From a virus, in the UHGV virus genome UHGV-1813710: a DNA stretch of 13,011 bases, one strand, 5' to 3'. The translations under genes and the position numbers were made by a program. The stretch's first letter is position 1. Every line of letters begins with the position of its first letter. This document shows positions 689 through 12,997 of this stretch, in pieces. The notes under the pieces are model-generated. The model saw nothing but the letters and a program-made list of their open reading frames with translations. It ran no database searches and was not told where the DNA came from.

Positions 689-871
689 TCAGCCCCCTCG
701 CTTCGCTGGATGAGTGATTTGTTCCACAGACCAATGAGCAAAGCTGTGGTTGATAGGTACCCACTCACCCGCTAAATTAACTGCATAGCGTAACGGGGCT
801 GGCGGTCTAGCATTATCGACCGGTAAGCAACGTAATTGCGGAACCTTGCAAGTTGCTGTTAATATGTTCAT
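689..871 (-). CDS. Small hypothetical phage protein (60 aa)
   Basis: ATG at 871-869 overlaps the TGA of the upstream CII-like ORF (ATGA overlap), and its own stop abuts the start of the downstream gene. The ORF track gives a longer version starting at 925 that would overlap the upstream gene. Confidence 0.4.
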   Translation of the reverse strand: MNILTATCKVPQLRCLPVDNARPPAPLRYAVNLAGEWVPINHSFAHWSVEQITHPAKRGG

Positions 872-1395
872 GCGATTGATTCTCCACACAGACAATTTTT
901 CGCCAAGGCGCCCGGAGCTGCACACTCGCGGGCGTCAACTTTTTCAGGCTCGCAATAGACACGAGCCACAAGCGTAAGAAACTGCATCAAGATGATATGG
1001 ATCTGGTGCGCTACTTCATTTAGCCCATCGAACTCTCGCCGCGTAATGACGTTGTCTGCTTTGTACTCACGATACGCGTTCGACAATTCCCCCAGCTTTG
1101 CCACCAGCTCAGCAAACTTATCGCCGATATCTTCGTTATCAATTTGATCAAGTTCTGGAAGCAATAAGAAAACGCCCCCCGAGATCCGCGCAATAGTTGA
1201 TGCAAAGTCTTCTGTCTGGCTGAATGCTTGCATCTGCAGCGCGTCATTGACGCTCATGTATTGAGCCCCGGCACCGCCACGTTCATAAACAAGGTTTTCA
1301 AGCTTGCAGCGGCTGTAACCTAAAGCGGCTGACATTGCATCCCAGCCGCCGGGATATGCCCTGATCATTGACTGGTAACACTTGCGAATTTCCAC
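868..1395 (-). CDS. CII-like early regulatory protein (phage CII/CP76-type, tentative)
   Basis: 175-aa ORF directly downstream of the cro-like gene on the same strand. GTG start at 1395 with AAGGGG Shine-Dalgarno 6 nt upstream; first in-frame ATG is 27 nt inside. Position and sequence style recall phage 186 CII-type regulators; the family assignment is from memory only. Confidence 0.5.
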   Translation of the reverse strand: MEIRKCYQSMIRAYPGGWDAMSAALGYSRCKLENLVYERGGAGAQYMSVNDALQMQAFSQTEDFASTIARISGGVFLLLPELDQIDNEDIGDKFAELVAKLGELSNAYREYKADNVITRREFDGLNEVAHQIHIILMQFLTLVARVYCEPEKVDARECAAPGALAKNCLCGESIA

Positions 1396-1450: not shown

Positions 1451-1684
1451 TTACTTCGAGCCAATGCGCTTCTTGCTTATCTCCAGCAAGTATTTTGCGG
1501 TGTATTTGCCTTTTGAAGCTTTGGCTATTTTGTTTGCGTAATCGGTCTCGCCACAAAAGTCCGTTCGGGGCAAGGAACCTTTTGAGATCCACTTGTAAAT
1601 TGCTCTTGGTGTGCGCCCGCAACAACTTGCAACCAACAGCACGCCTATTTCTTTCAAGGCATCACCTAACGTCTTATTTTCCAT
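1451..1684 (-). CDS. Cro-like HTH DNA-binding protein (Cro/YdaS-type)
   Basis: 77-aa ORF divergent from the repressor gene. AGGTGA Shine-Dalgarno 5 nt upstream of the ATG at 1684. The segment GRTPRAIYKWISKGSLP looks like the recognition helix region of Cro/YdaS-like proteins. Confidence 0.7.
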   Translation of the reverse strand: MENKTLGDALKEIGVLLVASCCGRTPRAIYKWISKGSLPRTDFCGETDYANKIAKASKGKYTAKYLLEISKKRIGSK

Positions 1685-1689
1685 GCTCT

Positions 1690-1773
1690 CACCTATAAAA
1701 TGAACTTAAAGTACATTCTATGTCAGAACTGAAAGTACATGCAAATGATTCTACAATTGAACCCATGGTACAA
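1690..1773. promoter_or_regulatory. OR-like immunity switch: three 17-bp bipartite operator-like repeats with putative divergent promoters
   Basis: Repeats ATGAAC-TTAAA-GTACAT (1700-1716), CAGAAC-TGAAA-GTACAT (1724-1740) and TTGAAC-CCATG-GTACAA (1757-1773). Candidate leftward promoter on the minus strand: TTGCAT (plus 1744-1739), 18-bp spacer, TAGAAT (plus 1720-1715). Candidate rightward promoter: -10 TACAAT at 1752-1757, placing the transcript start near the ATG at 1765 (leaderless, as for lambda cI). Confidence 0.45.
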
Positions 1774-2700
1774 GACGAAAAAGTGCGGAAAGATTTTGCC
1801 CAGCGGCTAGCACTGGCCTGTAGAGAAGCGGGGCTTGATGATCATGGCCGTGGCACTGAAATAGCCAAGGCGCTAAAGGTTACGGCCAAGGCTGTCAGCA
1901 AATGGCTCAATGCTGAGGCGTTGCCTCGTCAGCCCAAGATGGAGGCGCTGGCAAGGTTCCTGAAGGTCGATATGATATGGTTGCAGCATGGTAAGCGTGA
2001 CTCAAGATCTGCTGATGAGCAGGACGGGATCATTAAGTACAAGGATTTCGCAGATAGGCTAAACTCTCTCATGGGCGATAAGGGGGTGGACGTGAATCAA
2101 TTAAAAGAAATCTGCGATGTCACATTTGAAGTAGCGCGAAGTTATACACTTGGTGTATCAAAACCACGGGATGAAGCATTAGAGAAAATAGCTAATTTTT
2201 TTCAAGTTTCAATGCCATTTCTCGACTATGGCGTAGTTGATGACTCGCAACCATCTTCCGATACTGAAAAATTACAGCAGTTAGCTGTTTACGCCTCGGC
2301 TGGACGTAGCGGATATATAAATTCAGAGTTCCCAGAGGTCATCCGATCGATTGAAATACCCAAAGAGAGGATCTATGAGCTTTTTGGGAGAAAAAGCCTT
2401 GATGGTATCAGCATCATGAACATCAACGGCGATAGTATGATCCCAACTCTCAACCCTAGAGATCTTCTTTTTATTGACACTAGAATTGATAGTTTTAATG
2501 GCGATGGCGTCTATGTATTTTGTTTTGAAGATGCAATGTTTGTTAAGCGATTACAAAGAGTTAAGGGTAGAAGGTTATCAGTAATTTCAGATAATAATGT
2601 TTACCCTCCATTTACAATTGAAGAAAATGAAATGTTTGAGCTGTACATATATGGAAAGTTGATAAAACAATTACCAATGAAGCTCATTGATTTCGCTTAG
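1765..2700 (+). CDS. CI-type prophage repressor with two tandem HTH (XRE-type) domains and a C-terminal S24 (LexA-like) autopeptidase domain
   Basis: C-terminal region contains GDSM (catalytic Ser) and FVKRL (catalytic Lys) plus an Ala-Gly candidate cleavage site (YASAGRSG). Two separate HTH-like segments precede it (…TEIAKALKVTAKAVSKWLN… and …LKEICDVTFEVARSYTLGVS…). Start ambiguous: ATG 1720 (track) or ATG 1765; 1765 is preferred because 1720 lies among the operator repeats and the putative leftward promoter. Confidence 0.85.
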   Translation: MVQDEKVRKDFAQRLALACREAGLDDHGRGTEIAKALKVTAKAVSKWLNAEALPRQPKMEALARFLKVDMIWLQHGKRDSRSADEQDGIIKYKDFADRLNSLMGDKGVDVNQLKEICDVTFEVARSYTLGVSKPRDEALEKIANFFQVSMPFLDYGVVDDSQPSSDTEKLQQLAVYASAGRSGYINSEFPEVIRSIEIPKERIYELFGRKSLDGISIMNINGDSMIPTLNPRDLLFIDTRIDSFNGDGVYVFCFEDAMFVKRLQRVKGRRLSVISDNNVYPPFTIEENEMFELYIYGKLIKQLPMKLIDFA

Positions 2701-2717: not shown

Positions 2718-2745
2718 AAAGCCGACAACTGTCGGCTTTTTTTTT
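2718..2745 (+). terminator. Rho-independent terminator downstream of the repressor gene
   Basis: Stem GCCGAC (2721-2726) pairs with GTCGGC (2731-2736) around a 4-nt loop, followed by nine T residues (2737-2745), 18 nt after the stop codon. Confidence 0.8.
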
Positions 2746-2783
2746 GCAATAATTTCAATAAATTAAATACAACAACCAATAAA

Positions 2784-2830
2784 ATGTACTTCTGGTACTT
2801 GATTAAATTGAACCAATAGTACATTATAAA
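2784..2830 (+). promoter_or_regulatory. OL-like site: two more copies of the operator motif overlapping a putative rightward promoter
   Basis: TTGAAC-CAATA-GTACAT at 2808-2824 (same orientation as the OR copies) and ATGTAC-TTCTG-GTAC at 2784-2800 (inverted copy with a perfect GTACAT half-site on the minus strand). Centres are 24 bp apart, the same spacing as OR copies 1 and 2. TATAAA at 2825-2830 is a possible -10. Confidence 0.4.
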
Positions 2831-2898: not shown

Positions 2899-3159
2899 AT
2901 GACTAGTTATTACACGTGCTCTTTTTGCGGGATACGCGAGCAGGATGCTAAAAGGATTGTTGCCAAGGGTGGCAGAGATGAGCCAGCAATCTGCTCTAAG
3001 TGCATTGTCTCATGTGTAAATGTCATTATTAACGCAGGAACAGTAATGGAAATAGAGAAAAAAGGCGCCAATAAGGGTGAATTAATCCTTGATATGGAAT
3101 TGGCACCTCGATCAGAAAAAATGTCATTTACTCAGACTGAGGTAGCTCAATCGGATTAA
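2899..3159 (+). CDS. Small protein (86 aa) with a ClpX-type C4 zinc-finger (ClpX N-terminal zinc-binding-domain-like) and no ATPase domain
   Basis: Sequence MTSYYTCSFCGIREQDAKRIVAKGGRDEPAICSKCIVSCVNVII has C-x2-C-x19-C-x2-C and parallels the ClpX N-domain (recalled E. coli motif YCSFCGK…RKLIAG…ICDECVDLCNDII). GGGAG Shine-Dalgarno 6 nt upstream of ATG 2899; the track's 2887 start is GTG. Confidence 0.65.
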   Translation: MTSYYTCSFCGIREQDAKRIVAKGGRDEPAICSKCIVSCVNVIINAGTVMEIEKKGANKGELILDMELAPRSEKMSFTQTEVAQSD

Positions 3160-3403
3160 GCGCCATTGACGCCATTGGTAGCTGAATCAATGAGATCGGC
3201 AAGTTGGATAAACTTCTCTCTACCAGTTGACCTTAAGACACTACTGGCATTAGCAGAACAAGCATCACTGGAATATGCCGCTAGCAAGCATATAGCGGTC
3301 TTTAAAGCGCCGAGTTCTTCAATTAAACCTTCTGGCGTTACGTCGTTATCAAGTGACAGTGTGAAATTTGGCATTTTTATCTCTATGTGATTGGTGTACG
3401 ACA

Positions 3404-3440
3404 GGTGGCGACATTGGCCACCACGCTCTTTAAAAATCTG
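3404..3440 (+). terminator. Hairpin with weak T-tract between the convergent genes (possible terminator)
   Basis: GGTGGC (3404-3409), 7-nt loop, GCCACC (3417-3422), followed by ACGCTCTTTAAAAATCT. The T-tract is interrupted, so termination efficiency is uncertain. Confidence 0.3.
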
Positions 3441-3458
3441 GATATCCCTAGTCGATAG

Positions 3459-3971
3459 TTAGAAGATCATTGGAGCGATATCTATTGGCTCATATGCCGA
3501 TTTGTTCATTAGAAAAAGGCTGGCGCAATGAAAGCATTTGCATTGTTCAAAGTAACAAGAGTTATTCGAATTATATCCAACCTCTCCTGTTGGCTGGAGT
3601 ATCGATACTATTTTTTGTGTGAAGCATTTTGGGCAAAGATGCACGGCTATTTGCATTCCGTTAACAGATTCATTCTTAGAATAAACAAACGTTCCAGAAT
3701 CAAGCTGGTTCAGAGCATAACCTTCAGTCTGGCTTTTAAAGTCTTCGAACTCTGCAATTTTTGCTTTGAGCGTTACGGCTTCTTCCTGATAAAAGCGTGC
3801 AAGCTCAATGAGCGACATGCATTCACGCTGCACAGACGTAAGCTTTAAAACCATATCGCTAACAGCAGAATTTATCTCTGCCTGTGTTTTTGCATTTGAA
3901 ATAACTTTCGCCAAAGCAGTCGTTTCTTTAATTGCCGACATTGCAGCTGTGATTTCAACAAACACTTTCAA
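3459..3971 (-). CDS. Hypothetical protein (170 aa): helical/coiled-coil N-terminal half, Cys-rich C-terminal half; AT-rich moron-like gene
   Basis: Protein-like ORF convergent with the flanking rightward genes; the opposite-strand ORFs (3528-3848, 3808-4008) look like antisense artefacts. C-terminal half has a CPKC…C…CKCFHC pattern suggesting metal binding. TTG start at 3971 with no clear Shine-Dalgarno; alternative ATG at 3941. Sequence is visibly more AT-rich than neighbouring phage genes. Confidence 0.5.
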   Translation of the reverse strand: MKVFVEITAAMSAIKETTALAKVISNAKTQAEINSAVSDMVLKLTSVQRECMSLIELARFYQEEAVTLKAKIAEFEDFKSQTEGYALNQLDSGTFVYSKNESVNGMQIAVHLCPKCFTQKIVSILQPTGEVGYNSNNSCYFEQCKCFHCASLFLMNKSAYEPIDIAPMIF

Positions 3972-4269
3972 TACTCATATAGTCGTTGGGGATATTCAGA
4001 CTAACTGAATTCTTGTTGTTGGGGAATAGCAGGAACCACTGCCGCCTGAAGTGGAAAAATAAACAGGCTAAATAAGTTACATGTGAATCATCAGCAGCAG
4101 ACCAGCCGGCGGTGTCTTAACACCGGCAGTACATAATGAATAGCCACTACTCTCCGGGTATTCATGTATGCACGGACAGCTCGGAAAGACGTAGCCGCCT
4201 GATCCACGTTAAGGATCACACAACCGCATGGGTATTTAGATTCAGGGGCGTTTCGAGTACCCAGCCGGT

Positions 4270-4313
4270 TGTGGTGTAGCGGTTACGCGCTGGTTCAAGT
4301 CCAGTCACCACAA
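4270..4313 (+). other. tRNA-like minihelix (acceptor stem, U8-A9, short hairpin and T-arm, but no anticodon arm)
   Basis: TGTGGTG (4270-4276) pairs perfectly with CACCACA (4306-4312). TA follows at 4277-4278, then a GCG-GTTA-CGC hairpin (4279-4288), then T-arm GCTGG-TTCAAGT-CCAGT (4289-4305) with a canonical T-loop sequence, then an A at the discriminator position. Confidence 0.35.
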
Positions 4314-4339
4314 AATATGTTCCATCGCTGTGTAGTCTT

Positions 4340-6754: not shown

Positions 6755-7499
6755 ATTATCAACTGAGCGTTTAGAAAAATTCGTCAACGATATTAAAACT
6801 GATGGGATGTGCGACATAACTGATTATCAAGTTGCGTTGGCGTTACGTCAGTTACTGGCATACGAGCAAGCAGTACCGGTATTACCTAAACAGCCTGAGA
6901 CTCAGTTCGATGAAATCGCGCTTGATACTGCAAGAGAGATTATGCGTGATGTAAACCAGCGCCATGAATTGATTGGCGGTGAGTGTCAGTTGCTTGCGCG
7001 CACTCAGTGTCGAATTAATGACGTACTGTGTAACGTCGCAGCACCAGCACAACCTGTAATACCAGAACAAGCTAAGCCTGTGGCATATACAGACAATAGA
7101 AACTTAAAAAGTCTACAGAAAGGATGTAATACGGCATTGCTCTGGCTTAAGCATAACGCCGAAGTTGGTGATATTCCTCTATATACCGAAGTGCCGACAC
7201 AACCTGTAAGCGAGCCTTACAAGCTACCAGTCGGATATTTTTCTTATGGCTCTGAGTGTGGTTTTGATTGGCACAATACAGAGAAAGAAGCGATTGAAGC
7301 TGCCGAGGCTGTAATTGACAACTATCGCGGTGATGCGTGCGACGGCTGGTCTGAGGAAACAGACAGTGTCTGCTGGGGTGTCATTTTGCAACAGGCAACA
7401 AAGGTCGATGAGCGCCCACGTACTGATGATGATAAATGCGATCCGGCTATTGATACGGTCTGTGATTACGCGCTACTACCGGCGCAGGAGAGCGAATAA
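6747..7499 (+). CDS. Hypothetical phage protein (250 aa), Cys-containing C-terminal region
   Basis: Start overlaps the upstream gene by 8 nt, with a GGGGG Shine-Dalgarno. Ends in …AQESE, whose codons form the Shine-Dalgarno for the next gene. Confidence 0.6.
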   Translation: MSELSTERLEKFVNDIKTDGMCDITDYQVALALRQLLAYEQAVPVLPKQPETQFDEIALDTAREIMRDVNQRHELIGGECQLLARTQCRINDVLCNVAAPAQPVIPEQAKPVAYTDNRNLKSLQKGCNTALLWLKHNAEVGDIPLYTEVPTQPVSEPYKLPVGYFSYGSECGFDWHNTEKEAIEAAEAVIDNYRGDACDGWSEETDSVCWGVILQQATKVDERPRTDDDKCDPAIDTVCDYALLPAQESE

Positions 7500-8263
7500 T
7501 GCGCCCTCACTTTCACGGAACCCCGATTTGGGGGAATGCTGGCGATGTTTTGCGTGTTGCTGTTAGCGGAGCTGGTGCATTCGTTTCTTACGTTAGACCA
7601 GACCAGATTGAGCGCTGTTTTAAATATGCGGATAGTGTAGCTATCGATAACGGCGCGTTTTCAGCATGGAAAAGCGGCAAGAAATTGGATTGGAATAAAT
7701 TCTATGAATTCCTGTACAGGCATTATCACCGCTCAAAGCTTGCATTTTTTTGTATTCCAGACGTTGTGGAAGGTGGTGAAAGCGATAACGACGCAATGAT
7801 TAAAGCCGTTCCGCACATATTCAAAGAAAAAGCAGCTCCGGTTTGGCATTTACACGAATCTATCGAGCGCTTAATTCGTTTGTGCGAAGAGTGGCCGCGC
7901 GTGTGTTTTGGCTCGTCTGGTCAGTACGCGCGAACATTAACAAAGCTATGGCATGAGCGCATGAAAGAAGCTTTCACGGAGATTTATATCAAGCGCCAAC
8001 TGACAACGAAAATACACGGACTACGCATGCTTGATGGTCGCATTTTGGGTAACTACCCGCTACACAGCGCAGATAGCACAAACCTAGCATGCAACGTTCC
8101 AAAATTTAACATGAAGTATCCAGAGCTAACCCGAGCTGTATTAGATAAGGGGTATGGTCAAGACATGGTTCAACTACACCGTTGCGCGATTCTAAAAAAC
8201 TCAATTGAGTCAGTAACACCGCCGAGCATCGCGGCGTGGGTAGCTGCACAGGAGAGCGAATAA
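7499..8263 (+). CDS. Hypothetical phage protein (254 aa); weak, unverified resemblance to tRNA-guanine transglycosylase (TGT)/DpdA-type proteins
   Basis: TAATG overlap with the upstream gene. Segments HGTPIWG, VAIDNGAFSAW and GLRMLDG loosely parallel the TGT segments PVGTYG, LTDSGGFQV and GIDMFDCV (recollection, not a computed alignment). Confidence 0.6.
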   Translation: MRPHFHGTPIWGNAGDVLRVAVSGAGAFVSYVRPDQIERCFKYADSVAIDNGAFSAWKSGKKLDWNKFYEFLYRHYHRSKLAFFCIPDVVEGGESDNDAMIKAVPHIFKEKAAPVWHLHESIERLIRLCEEWPRVCFGSSGQYARTLTKLWHERMKEAFTEIYIKRQLTTKIHGLRMLDGRILGNYPLHSADSTNLACNVPKFNMKYPELTRAVLDKGYGQDMVQLHRCAILKNSIESVTPPSIAAWVAAQESE

Positions 8264-9563: not shown

Positions 9564-9782
9564 ATGGCGAAAGAAGCTAAATTGATGCGCGCGAGCGCGT
9601 GGGGCAAGCGTGAGTTCGAGGTGGGTTCTATTCCTGATAATAGAACTATTAGGCGCTGGATAGAAAATGGCCGTTTGCGTGGCCGGATTGTTGATGGAAC
9701 CATTTTGGTTTATTCATCTGAACGCTGGGGTATTGAGTCTGTTGTATCCCACCACGTACATAATTTAATTAGTGAATCATGA
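9564..9782 (+). CDS. xis: Excisionase (lambda Xis-like)
   Basis: Lies immediately upstream of int with an ATGA overlap. Segment RTIRRWIENGRLRGRIVDGTILVYSSE parallels lambda Xis ETVRRWVRECRIFPPPVKDGREYLFHES. GGAG 9 nt upstream of ATG 9564; the track's 9519 start lacks a Shine-Dalgarno. Confidence 0.75.
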   Translation: MAKEAKLMRASAWGKREFEVGSIPDNRTIRRWIENGRLRGRIVDGTILVYSSERWGIESVVSHHVHNLISES

Positions 9783-10960
9783 TGGCAGCTCGACCACGCA
9801 AGCGTGAAAACCGGCACCTTCCCGATCTGCTGTATTTCGATAAAGTTGCCGGCGTTTATCGCTTTACCCTAATCACGGGAAAGAGAAAATCATTAGGCTC
9901 TGACCGTGCTTTAGCAATCGCTATTGCGCGTGAATATAACAATAGAATGCGACCGGATATAGTTGTATCAGTTGACTCGCTTATTAGTGAATCGGGCGGC
10001 TTGAAGGGGGAATCCCTGCCCTTCTCCAGTCATGTTGATCATATTCTCGCTCGTGCTATCACGGACGAGAAACCAAGCCCTGATACAAAGGCTGACTGGA
10101 TGAATGATGCAAAACGAGTGAAAGAATTCTTCATTGACATTCACTGCTGCGATATTGAACTAGAGCACGTCAATGCGTTCATTCAGCATTATCATGCTGA
10201 AGCATCAGCAAACGTACAAAACCGCAAAGTTAGTTTTCTAAAGAAATTATTTAGTTATGCAGTAGACGAATCGTTAATGTTCGATAATCCAGCAACTAGA
10301 AAGAAAATGCGGAGAATTGAGGGGAAAGTTCGCCAACGCTTATCTTTCGACAATCTGATGGCTATACGAAACGCCGCGGATCGATGGCTGCGAACTGCGA
10401 TAGATCTAGCTCTACAGACAACGCACGCCCGGCTTGAAGTTTCCCGAATTCGCTATTCAATCAAAGAGCCCAAAAATGGCGTGTGTGGCTGTGTGTGGTT
10501 CGACGCTCCAGAGAGTGGGATTTATGGCGTTATGTATATACACAGGCAGAAAGTGCAGCACAAAGAAGCATCACACGTCGCAATACCAATCGGGCCTGAA
10601 CTTAAAAGAATTATTGATGATAGCCGCGACAATGCTGCTAGCCCATACATTGTTCATCGTTTACCAAAACGCAATAATAAGCCAAGCAAAGAGGTTTCAC
10701 ATCCTACACAAGTAGCGCCAGACTACTTGAGCCGGGCATTCTCAACACTTCGAGATGAGCTCGGGATTTGCTCACATCTTGAAATGGATGAACGTCCGAC
10801 ATTCCATGAAATCCGAGCGCTTGCTGCACACCTATTTGATACGCAAGGCATTGACCCACAGGGCCGCATGGCTCACAGCGACGCTAAGTCGACTAAGATA
10901 TACACGCAAAATCATATCGATTGGGTCATGGTGCCGCACGGCGAGATCAAGACGGGATGA
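9779..10960 (+). CDS. int: Tyrosine site-specific integrase, lambda Int family
   Basis: N-terminus RENRHLPDLLYF…GKRKSLGSDRALAIA parallels lambda Int HERRDLPPNLYI…GKEFGLGRDRRIAIT. C-terminus has PTFHEIRALAAHLF (H-x-x-R box) and …STKIYTQNH (catalytic Tyr). Adjacent to xis and to the tRNA-derived att core. Confidence 0.95.
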   Translation: MMAARPRKRENRHLPDLLYFDKVAGVYRFTLITGKRKSLGSDRALAIAIAREYNNRMRPDIVVSVDSLISESGGLKGESLPFSSHVDHILARAITDEKPSPDTKADWMNDAKRVKEFFIDIHCCDIELEHVNAFIQHYHAEASANVQNRKVSFLKKLFSYAVDESLMFDNPATRKKMRRIEGKVRQRLSFDNLMAIRNAADRWLRTAIDLALQTTHARLEVSRIRYSIKEPKNGVCGCVWFDAPESGIYGVMYIHRQKVQHKEASHVAIPIGPELKRIIDDSRDNAASPYIVHRLPKRNNKPSKEVSHPTQVAPDYLSRAFSTLRDELGICSHLEMDERPTFHEIRALAAHLFDTQGIDPQGRMAHSDAKSTKIYTQNHIDWVMVPHGEIKTG

Positions 10961-11037: not shown

Positions 11038-11094
11038 GTCGACAACCTAGAGAAACCAGTGCTGGCGCGGGTTTCAGCGTGTTGAATACGCTAA

Positions 11095-11140
11095 CATGGG
11101 GTGTCGGGGGTCGGAGGTTCAAATCCTCTCGTGCCGACCA
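11095..11140 (+). other. Partial tRNA: 3' about 45 nt of a tRNA-Pro-like gene (anticodon loop to CCA), i.e. the att core repeat at the prophage boundary
   Basis: T-arm GGAGG-TTCAAAT-CCTCT (11113-11129), acceptor 3' strand CGTGCCG, discriminator A and CCA (11138-11140). No complementary 5' acceptor strand (CGGCACG) upstream, so the tRNA is not intact. GGG sits at the inferred anticodon position and the string matches my recollection of enterobacterial tRNA-Pro. Confidence 0.65.
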
Positions 11141-11989: not shown

Positions 11990-12997
11990 ATGGCTAATTT
12001 TTATTACATGGATACAGACAAAAATTTCAATCATGAAAATGATTCACTATTCAAAAAAAACACTATTAAAACAAGCAATAACAATCTAAAAGTACTAAAT
12101 ATTGCATTCTGTTTTGATGATAATTTTGTGATGCCAACAGGTGTAGCCATTGCATCTGTCATTGAAAACAATAAAGACTCGCACCTCCACTTTCATTTAT
12201 TCTTCGAATCCATTTCTGAAAAAAACAAATCTAGAATACTTGAGATACAAGGTGATAACGTTTCAATAACAACATATGAACTTCAGGAAGAACTATCCGT
12301 CAATCCTAATACACTCATTCTGGGAATCCCAAAGTCCACGTGCTTAAGATTTATGGTTCCTTTTGTTCTACGGCATGAGGTTGATTCTGTTTTATATTTG
12401 GATGGCGATATGATTTGCTTAGATTCATTACACGCCTTACATGACCTAAACCTTAAAGGACATATTGCCGCTGTAGTTGCTGACTCTAAAGAGATGCAAC
12501 AGAAAGCCAGCACACTAGGATACGGTATTGATACCGATAAATATTTCAATGCAGGATTTTTATTTATCAATGTATCTGAGTGGAATTTTAAAAATGTCAC
12601 CGCCGTGGCATTTAACATGATCAATAGCGGTACAATTTATAAATATGCCGATCAGGATGTATTAAATATACTCTTAAACGAAAACATTAAATTAATTGAC
12701 AAGAAATATAATAAAACTATAACGCTAAGCCCTATCGATAGGGTAGATGATAATGCATCTCGTGGCACAACCATTTTGCATTATGTTACAAAAAATAAAC
12801 CGTGGTTTATGATATTTGAGTCTCAGATTTTCTTTTATTACCTGAATCAATCTCCATGGAAAGACACGCAATTAAAACTGACACCTAATGCTAGCCTGCT
12901 TAGAATAAAGGCAAAAAAACTCCTTTCTGATAAGAAATTTGTCGATTGGATAAAATATTTCTCCCTATATATTAAATATAAATTATTTAGCAAATAA
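11990..12997 (+). CDS. Glycosyltransferase family 8 (LPS/LOS glycosyltransferase-like, RfaJ/LgtC type)
   Basis: GT8 hallmarks: NIAFCFDDNFVMPTGVAIASV (nucleotide-sugar binding region), YLDGDMIC (DxD motif), NAGFLFINVSEW, YADQDVLN and HY…KPW. Very AT-rich gene preceded by an AT-rich promoter-like region. Confidence 0.8.
   Translation: MANFYYMDTDKNFNHENDSLFKKNTIKTSNNNLKVLNIAFCFDDNFVMPTGVAIASVIENNKDSHLHFHLFFESISEKNKSRILEIQGDNVSITTYELQEELSVNPNTLILGIPKSTCLRFMVPFVLRHEVDSVLYLDGDMICLDSLHALHDLNLKGHIAAVVADSKEMQQKASTLGYGIDTDKYFNAGFLFINVSEWNFKNVTAVAFNMINSGTIYKYADQDVLNILLNENIKLIDKKYNKTITLSPIDRVDDNASRGTTILHYVTKNKPWFMIFESQIFFYYLNQSPWKDTQLKLTPNASLLRIKAKKLLSDKKFVDWIKYFSLYIKYKLFSK

Follow-up and report, generated by a model that had tools for sequence, protein, structure and literature searches.

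What is the product of a small gene that stands close to the repressor of a lambdoid prophage and is read against most of the genes around it? This question is raised by the UHGV virus genome UHGV-1813710, of which 13,011 nucleotides (hereafter the window, meaning the whole stretch of DNA analysed) cover the left arm of a lambdoid prophage that is inserted next to a tRNA-Ser gene (positions 11057-11140). An initial annotation, made from the DNA letters alone, had singled this gene out as a candidate defence or superinfection-exclusion factor, and had named sensitive homology search and structure prediction as the means to examine it. Both approaches lead to Rip1 in Protein Data Bank (PDB) structure 9oox, and the candidacy is supported by homology over the full length of the protein, in sequence and in predicted fold. 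In our judgement the gene, called rip1-like below, very probably is a Rip1-family abortive-infection defence carried by the prophage. Judged by its sequence, the protein is part of a divergent enterobacterial subfamily of Rip1, a family described in 2026.

3459-3965, minus strand: rip1-like coding sequence, 168 amino acids (aa) from a GTG start, supported by the list of open reading frames (ORFs), the homologue alignment, independent gene calls, the match to phrog_1244 and homology to Rip1.

Rip1, or 'ring interacting pore 1' (Patel et al. 2026, Nature 651:1060, as relayed in the review PMC13434031), is portrayed there as a single-protein prophage anti-phage system that is harmless on its own (PMC13434031; the family also appears in the meeting report PMC12908700). 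According to this review, mutants that escape Rip1 are altered in the portal protein in phages of Pseudomonas and the small terminase in coliphages, and cryo-electron microscopy (cryo-EM) reveals an 11-mer terminase ring encircled by twelve Rip1 subunits (PMC13434031). The same source assigns ring contact to the C-terminal half of the protein and pore formation to its N-terminal amphipathic helices, and reports that liposomes leak and that membrane integrity is lost in infected cells before the phages mature (PMC13434031).

When the PDB was searched with phmmer, residues 7-158 of the 168-aa protein matched chain 9oox_L (Rip1; E-value (E) 6.2e-10), and a profile built from 41 family sequences matched the same Rip1 over 5-156 at E 2.7e-17. 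Structure 9oox holds the Rip1 of phage HK446 together with the small terminase of T6. An AlphaFold2 model of the protein (pLDDT 88) consists of helices at 2-26 and 30-81 followed by a beta-rich domain at 86-157, and at E<=0.001 Foldseek retrieved only 9oox_L and 9oox_M with it (E 2e-7 and 6e-7; probability 1.0). The initial annotation had described a long helical N-terminal half joined to a C-terminal half with a cysteine cluster, and the model bears out both parts of that description. Cysteines C113, C116, C146 and C149 are invariant in 41 homologues, with P114 alongside C113/C116, and they align with the LCAQC...CHRC residues of 9oox; the CxxC...CxxC pattern as a Rip1 trait is our own reading of the 9oox sequence and is unstated in the review. 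The N-terminal half is amphipathic, with a hydrophobic moment of 0.33-0.39 across residues 7-48, and by a crude measure it has no transmembrane-grade segment (highest 18-residue Kyte-Doolittle mean, 0.94). Moderately amphipathic helices of this kind fit a soluble precursor. Two further relatives were found by BLASTP, namely HkaP of phage HK620 (28% identity, E 5e-16) and DMS3-25 (26% identity, E 2e-18). The latter is encoded in reverse between the small and large terminase genes, which is the position given for Pseudomonas Rip1 in the review (PMC13434031).

The family to which the protein belongs is large and nearly devoid of annotation. Among the PHROGs, phrog_1244 (function unassigned) is matched over the full length at E 3e-43, whereas neither Pfam nor NCBIfam yielded any match for the protein. 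PADLOC 2.0, which includes RexAB, Abi and PD systems in a library that predates Rip1, returned no family at E<=1. A word-indexed search gave 77 relatives, all labelled 'hypothetical' and mostly from Enterobacteriaceae, and an exhaustive profile search gave 2301 cluster representatives at E<=0.001, the best 150 of which are mostly single-stretch proteins of 145-180 aa. The gene is conserved in enterobacterial prophages, and across the 41 aligned homologues the N-terminal half is strongly conserved and the C-terminal half is the most variable. In Trabulsiella odontotermitis (locus L008, 6704-6940), a full-length homologue has, directly upstream, a 78-aa ORF (MLAEFTASLSAIKASFDLLQVINDAD...) whose resemblance to the family is confined to the N-terminal helices; this ORF could have arisen by partial duplication or could be a second copy that has been truncated.

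Proteins that join a coiled coil to a four-cysteine ribbon call to mind a nucleic-acid-binding regulator or a nuclease, since such ribbons often bind nucleic acid, and two of the homologues (P0014 and P0036) carry the Joint Genome Institute (JGI) label 'predicted nuclease with TOPRIM domain'. Automatic matching of long helices typically produces such labels, neither TOPRIM nor any other Pfam domain was detected in the protein, and no nuclease-like fold ranked above Rip1 in the structural comparison. We regard a role of this sort as highly improbable.

The boundaries of the gene required one correction. The initial annotation had taken the mechanical ORF on the minus strand at 3459-3971, which encodes 170 aa from a TTG codon. 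The ORF itself is real, but its true start almost certainly is the GTG at 3965, because the N-termini of homologues (MIAE..) align with VFVE.. and the nearest relative (P0001) has 168 aa, and because independent gene calls on identical metagenome contigs (L021 and L022) use that codon. The earlier remark that a clear ribosome-binding site is missing is accurate in that the Shine-Dalgarno element amounts to GAG, 8 nucleotides (nt) before the GTG. Yet an alignment of the sequences upstream of homologues reveals that the weak site and the GTG start are conserved in at least ten genera, and therefore this weakness is a family trait rather than the sign of a spurious ORF.

Approximately 110 base pairs (bp) upstream of the start are more conserved across genera than the protein itself. 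By blastn, this region is 77% identical to lambda 34394-34492, which immediately precedes sieB, and it also matches the stretch annotated in P22 as 'sieB: promoter', such that identity to the lambda and P22 sieB promoter/leader is 77-81%. The region upstream of hkaP in HK620 shares the first 38 nt. Four elements can be placed by these alignments.

3998-4028, minus strand: equivalent of the P22 sieB promoter (homologue and P22 alignments, P22 annotation).
3966-3992, minus strand: predicted 27-nt mRNA leader (P22 sieB RNA start, BK000583, projected by alignment).
4036-4068, given without strand: conserved boundary element, the 30-mer, with consensus GCCTGTCTTTTAACCACATCAGGCTCGGTGG and a diverged window copy, GCCTGTTTATTTTTCCACTTCAGGCGGCAGTGG (alignments).
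About 3961-4086, plus strand: predicted sas-like antisense RNA (ends of the 127-nt P22 sas projected).

The -10 element of the promoter reads GTTAGT (4005-4000) in the window and GATAAT or GTTAAT in most homologues, and transcription is predicted to begin near 3992, at the second CCCCAAC motif. The initial annotation had likened the position of the gene to those of rexAB and sieB in lambda. The homology of promoter and leader means that the sieB comparison describes the actual locus, even though the protein is no SieB. An identity with SieB was considered and rejected, since the Pfam SieB model matches the SieB proteins of P22 and lambda at ~1e-29 and fails to match the window protein, for which hhalign gives a probability of 0.1%.

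These control sequences bear on a second explanation, in which the protein is an exclusion factor that makes no pore and acts, for example, by sequestering terminase or by blocking packaging while leaving the membrane intact, and is thus closer to SieB-type abortive exclusion. Use of the sieB slot and of its control region would agree with such a role, as would the identity of 17-28% to proven Rip1 proteins and the modest hydrophobicity of the N-terminal helices. However, there is no similarity to SieB by Pfam or hhalign, and conservation extends over the whole of Rip1, with both halves represented and the pore-lining N-terminal helices among the conserved parts. This alternative is improbable in our estimation, and we retain the assignment to a pore-forming Rip1 family.

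The position of the early-left promoter (PL) is indicated by the operators of the prophage.

868-1395, minus strand: CII-like gene.
1451-1684, minus strand: cro-like gene.
1720-2700, plus strand: repressor gene cI, encoding 326 aa with an S24 peptidase domain and two helix-turn-helix (HTH) domains.
2718-2739, plus strand: intrinsic terminator that closes the cI transcript, a 9-bp stem followed by a T9 run.
2780-2828, plus strand: left operators (OL), TGTACTTCTGGTACT at 2784-2798 and TGAACCAATAGTACA at 2808-2822, which repeat the copies of the right operator (OR).
2899-3159, plus strand: gene for a protein of 86 aa that has a C4 zinc finger of the ClpX type (ClpX-ZnF), first gene of the PL operon (Pfam PF06689, E 3.7e-7; phrog_5259; gene calls on contigs L021-L025).
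3156-3374, minus strand: orf72, a 72-aa ORF just downstream of the rip1-like gene (phrog_7249, E 3e-9).
4422 to the integrase gene (9779-10960), plus strand: long operon.

The operator motif at OR, TGAAC-N5-GTACA, occurs at ~1700, 1724 and 1757 (region 1696-1772). The repressor is unusually long at 326 aa, and two domains of the HTH_3 type precede its S24 peptidase domain; because two of the three OR-like copies (~1724 and ~1757) fall inside its annotated 5' coding region, the real start may be further downstream. The OL copies directly follow the cI terminator and overlap a PL-like promoter composed of TTGATT (2799-2804), a 17-nt spacer and CATTAT (2822-2827), hexamers that were picked by eye and that score under the threshold of the promoter scanner. 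Three other metagenome or genome contigs carry the ClpX-ZnF gene, orf72 and the rip1-like gene as a trio behind different repressors, and in each of them the spacer between repressor and ClpX-ZnF gene holds copies of that phage's own OR operator. The OL operators place PL upstream of the ClpX-ZnF gene, and consequently the rip1-like gene is antisense inside the early-left operon. From its position, PL would fire into the ClpX-ZnF gene, and transcription would then proceed towards the early genes, crossing orf72 and the rip1-like gene in antisense.

This arrangement refines the initial annotation in several respects. The gene does occupy a sieB-like slot, but since PL lies upstream it is not strictly between the immunity region and the early operon, as had been proposed. 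It was also said to run against every neighbouring early gene, and it indeed opposes cI, the ClpX-ZnF gene and every gene from 4422 to the integrase, whereas orf72 is on its own strand. The claim of AT-richness survives in a reduced form. At a GC content of 0.394, against a prophage mean of 0.447 (standard deviation 0.034 in 513-bp windows), the gene sits at the 7th percentile and is the lowest of the prophage genes. Its GC content at third codon positions (GC3), 0.368, is nevertheless like that of DUF2303 (0.366), orf72 (0.356) and the ClpX-ZnF gene (0.374), and the 2.0-4.0 kb stretch as a whole is ~40% GC. Because its neighbours and the region are similar, this AT-richness is real but modest and unremarkable, and it makes a weak argument for a moron.

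Placement within the PL operon is shared with P22 sieB, for which an antisense RNA has been described. The P22 sas RNA spans sieB codon 2, the leader and the promoter and reaches 18 nt beyond the 30-mer (sequence from PMC13397905), and it switches sieB translation in a manner that spares P22 from its own exclusion system (PMC12197685). The published 127-nt sas (PMC13397905) and the P22 row in our alignment are exact reverse complements. This RNA aligns with the plus strand of the window, and the P22 version of the 30-mer (GCCTGTCTTTTAACCACNTCAGGCTCGGTGG) forms its 3' end. By analogy, a sas-like RNA produced from PL read-through by processing would cover the start codon, leader and promoter of the rip1-like gene. 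When 22 antisense sequences were aligned, a hairpin presenting GUUGGGG or GUAGGGG exhibited three compensatory pairs, whereas the 3' stem is invariant in all of them and therefore uninformative on pairing. Folded alone, the antisense segment of the window is no better than shuffled sequences (z -0.94), and the folding of P22 sas itself is marginal by this comparison (z -1.8). Structural support for the predicted RNA comes only from covariation in the one hairpin. The 30-mer can also be drawn as an H-type pseudoknot, in which CCAC/GUGG crosses GCCUG/CAGGC and the third loop is A-rich, but its stems are invariant or were fixed by the search pattern, and we do not claim it.

We propose the following sequence of events. 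A lysogen would make the Rip1-like protein from the gene's own weak promoter, in a form expected to be soluble and harmless. The trigger would be a ring-shaped morphogenesis protein of a superinfecting phage, which might be the small terminase in coliphages or the portal in Pseudomonas phages. The C-terminal zinc-ribbon domain would bind the outside of this ring, about twelve copies would assemble around it, and the N-terminal amphipathic helices would form a pore in the inner membrane, such that the cell would die or lyse before progeny are finished. During lytic growth of the prophage itself, transcription from PL would read through the locus and yield a sas-like antisense RNA over the start codon. 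This RNA could shut off synthesis of the Rip1-like protein and thereby prevent pore formation in response to the terminase or portal of the phage itself. Shut-off by antisense transcription from its own PL would explain how the phage survives its own induction, although we hold the chances for and against this additional layer to be evenly balanced. The locus thereby suggests how a pore-former that is triggered by terminase or portal might spare its own phage, namely by a sas-type module like the one that P22 uses with SieB.

Several observations weigh against this account. The identity to characterized Rip1 proteins is just 17-28%, and the half of the protein that contacts the ring is the most variable, so that the trigger is not predictable. 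TM-scores to the cryo-EM chains are moderate (0.38-0.68); these values fit the comparison of a monomer model with an assembled pore, and they are no proof of the same assembly. Compared with its relatives, the window carries more diverged versions of both the -10 element (GTTAGT) and the 30-mer, and ~148 extra nt (4069-4216) separate the 30-mer from the flank ...gcggttgtgt when compared with the closest contig (L018, protein 97% identical). This divergence and the 148-nt insertion may weaken both expression and antisense control. Moreover, the only known case of such antisense control is P22 sieB, the Pseudomonas Rip1 genes have no sieB-type cassette, and no conserved esc-like internal start was seen when the alignments were read, the only conserved internal methionine being codon 9, which has no usable Shine-Dalgarno at proper spacing.

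The 30-mer extends the significance of the locus beyond Rip1. A scan of viral contigs for this element returned at least 120 stretches, and all cargo counts that follow are among the matches listed (loci L027-L146). The first ORF behind the element falls into ~25 unrelated sequence clusters and begins at a fixed distance of ~68 or ~100 nt. These ORFs comprise 30 that are SieB-like, 20 that are Rip1-like (including the HK446 type) and members of 23 other families of 60-165 aa, and beyond the 30-mer, on its far side, 94% of the DNA is coding on the opposite strand. When 20 proteins from the other cargo families were tested, 19 remained under every Pfam gathering threshold and one was BssS-like. 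SieB and Rip1 are two known defence cargos of what looks like one hypervariable cargo slot in the lambdoid early-left operon, with a shared boundary and control module.

Two types of leader accompany the element. The long type has two CCCC[AT]ACA motifs, whereas the short type consists of the 30-mer, TATnCT, a hairpin whose stems clearly co-vary, a strong ribosome-binding site (AAGGA) and ATG. Stem pairs that co-vary in the short type include GCTGG/CCAGC, ACTGG/CCAGT, TCTTGG/CCAAGA and TCCTTT/AAAGGA. The short-leader sequence GGTGG-TAT[ACGT]CT reads as an extended -10 promoter, and because the hairpin overlaps this -10, its complete formation would be limited to an antisense transcript. An extended -10 was rejected as the common role of the 30-mer, since it is a misfit in the long-leader (sieB and rip1) cassettes, where the mapped P22 promoter lies ~40 nt further on.

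More tentatively, and with the balance tilting somewhat against it, we suggest that the 30-mer and leader constitute a portable control module marking the slot, whose cargo would be expressed by the prophage and silenced by a PL-derived sas-like RNA at the start of the lytic phase. If this were true, the ~23 other families, nearly all of which are unannotated, would be candidates for defence or exclusion genes that come with self-immunity built in. Hotspots in P2 and P4 have been used to harvest defence candidates, and if the 30-mer marks a general slot, it would be a simple sequence handle for doing the same in lambdoid prophages. No description of a cargo slot marked by the 30-mer was found in the literature searched, the coverage of which was incomplete.

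The exchange of cargo also informs a third explanation, in which a protein with the Rip1 fold serves the phage's own cycle, for instance in the timing of lysis or in packaging control by way of the phage's own terminase or portal ring, and not in defence against other phages. Every tailed phage makes the terminase and portal rings that the family binds, Pseudomonas phages carry the gene between two terminase genes, and the family is very widespread (2301 representatives), all of which would suit such a role. However, the rip1-like gene opposes the lytic operon and lies behind a promoter of the sieB type, which in P22 drives a gene that is expressed from the prophage, according to the abstract of PMC10883804. 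In addition, the review reports that Rip1 protects lysogens and that escape mutations arise in the invading phage (PMC13434031), the gene is present or absent among similar prophages, and unrelated cargo replaces it at the same slot. A role in the phage's own cycle therefore seems unlikely, and prophage-borne defence is the reading that we continue to favour.

The rip1-like gene stands alone, in a prophage context both in the window and in loci L001-L014, and its neighbouring genes are not conserved with it. In 8 of the 12 loci from species-representative genomes the homologue and the repressor gene are directly convergent, and the same convergence is found in E. coli SX45. In the window, orf72 and the rip1-like gene both converge on the ClpX-ZnF gene, and the stop codons of orf72 and the ClpX-ZnF gene overlap. 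Either of these neighbours might be considered a partner of the rip1-like gene, but they co-occur with it in a few contigs of different immunity and are absent from all other rip1-like loci, which indicates that they are not part of the system. Only two clusters among 5.8 billion proteins resemble orf72, which is 33% identical to the first-cargo ORF at the same slot in another phage; it probably represents a second cargo in the slot rather than a conserved partner. The ClpX-ZnF gene, which is found behind three different repressors elsewhere, occupies the place after OL and PL where lambda has N, and no N-like antiterminator was recognized among the genes of the window by Pfam and PHROGs annotation.

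A non-coding stretch on the plus strand at 4200-4320 folds far better than shuffled sequences (-43.9 kcal/mol, z -4.1). It contains a long hairpin (4219-4273) followed by a mimic of a tRNA acceptor and T arm, GUGGUG...CUGG-UUCAAGU-CCAG-U-CACCAC (~4272-4312), which was called neither by ARAGORN nor by Rfam. This stretch might serve as a site at which the PL transcript is processed. Further along the operon, a 254-aa early protein (7499-8263, plus strand) matches phrog_887, 'queuine tRNA-ribosyltransferase' (E 5e-82), a DpdA/TGT-like enzyme. Phage enzymes of this kind are linked to 7-deazaguanine DNA modification, and no genes for preQ0 synthesis were found in the window. The tRNA-Ser(TGA) gene adjoins the integrase gene and is the likely attachment site; it was found by ARAGORN but is missing from the Rfam gathering search. 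Beyond it lies a very AT-rich (32% GC) glycosyltransferase-like gene (11990-12997). Rfam gave no family at gathering thresholds in the window, with only sub-threshold small RNA matches around the cI terminator, and DNA searches for near-identity found just two E. coli prophages, both matched in part, and none of the phage records.

Among known systems, the closest in protein architecture are the Rip1 proteins of HK446 (9oox) and of Pseudomonas phages. The HK446 protein has 164 aa compared with 168 here and can be aligned over the full length, two long N-terminal helices precede a four-cysteine beta domain in both, and each is the product of a single prophage-borne gene that is reversed relative to its neighbours. 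They differ in sequence, with identities of 17-28% and a long, dissimilar loop between the two cysteine pairs, and in location, as the subfamily in the window is usually right beside the prophage repressor gene and convergent with it, not between terminase genes. HkaP of HK620, HK629 and HK630, annotated as 'putative superinfection exclusion protein', is of the same protein family (28%), occupies the same slot antisense in the PL operon and has the 30-mer at its 5' boundary. However, the HK620 leader is the lambda/P22 version, with CCCCTACAG loops, whereas that of the window is the CCCCAACAAC version, and the PL genes before the slot are N plus hkaQ in HK620 and the ClpX-ZnF gene in the window.

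The control of sieB/esc by the sas antisense RNA was reportedly established by Ranade and Poteete in 1993. With sieB/esc and sas of P22 and lambda, the window shares position and orientation in the early-left operon, a homologous promoter and leader, and the template for the antisense RNA, and expression from the prophage would be expected in both cases. SieB itself belongs to PF14163, to which the window protein has no detectable similarity, and no esc-like internal start is apparent in the rip1-like gene (sieB/esc with sas is described in PMC12197685 and PMC13397905). RexAB of lambda is alike in being a prophage-expressed abortive defence beside the immunity region that ends in the loss of membrane integrity, but it consists of two genes that are co-transcribed with cI and that have no similarity to the rip1-like gene in sequence or in fold.

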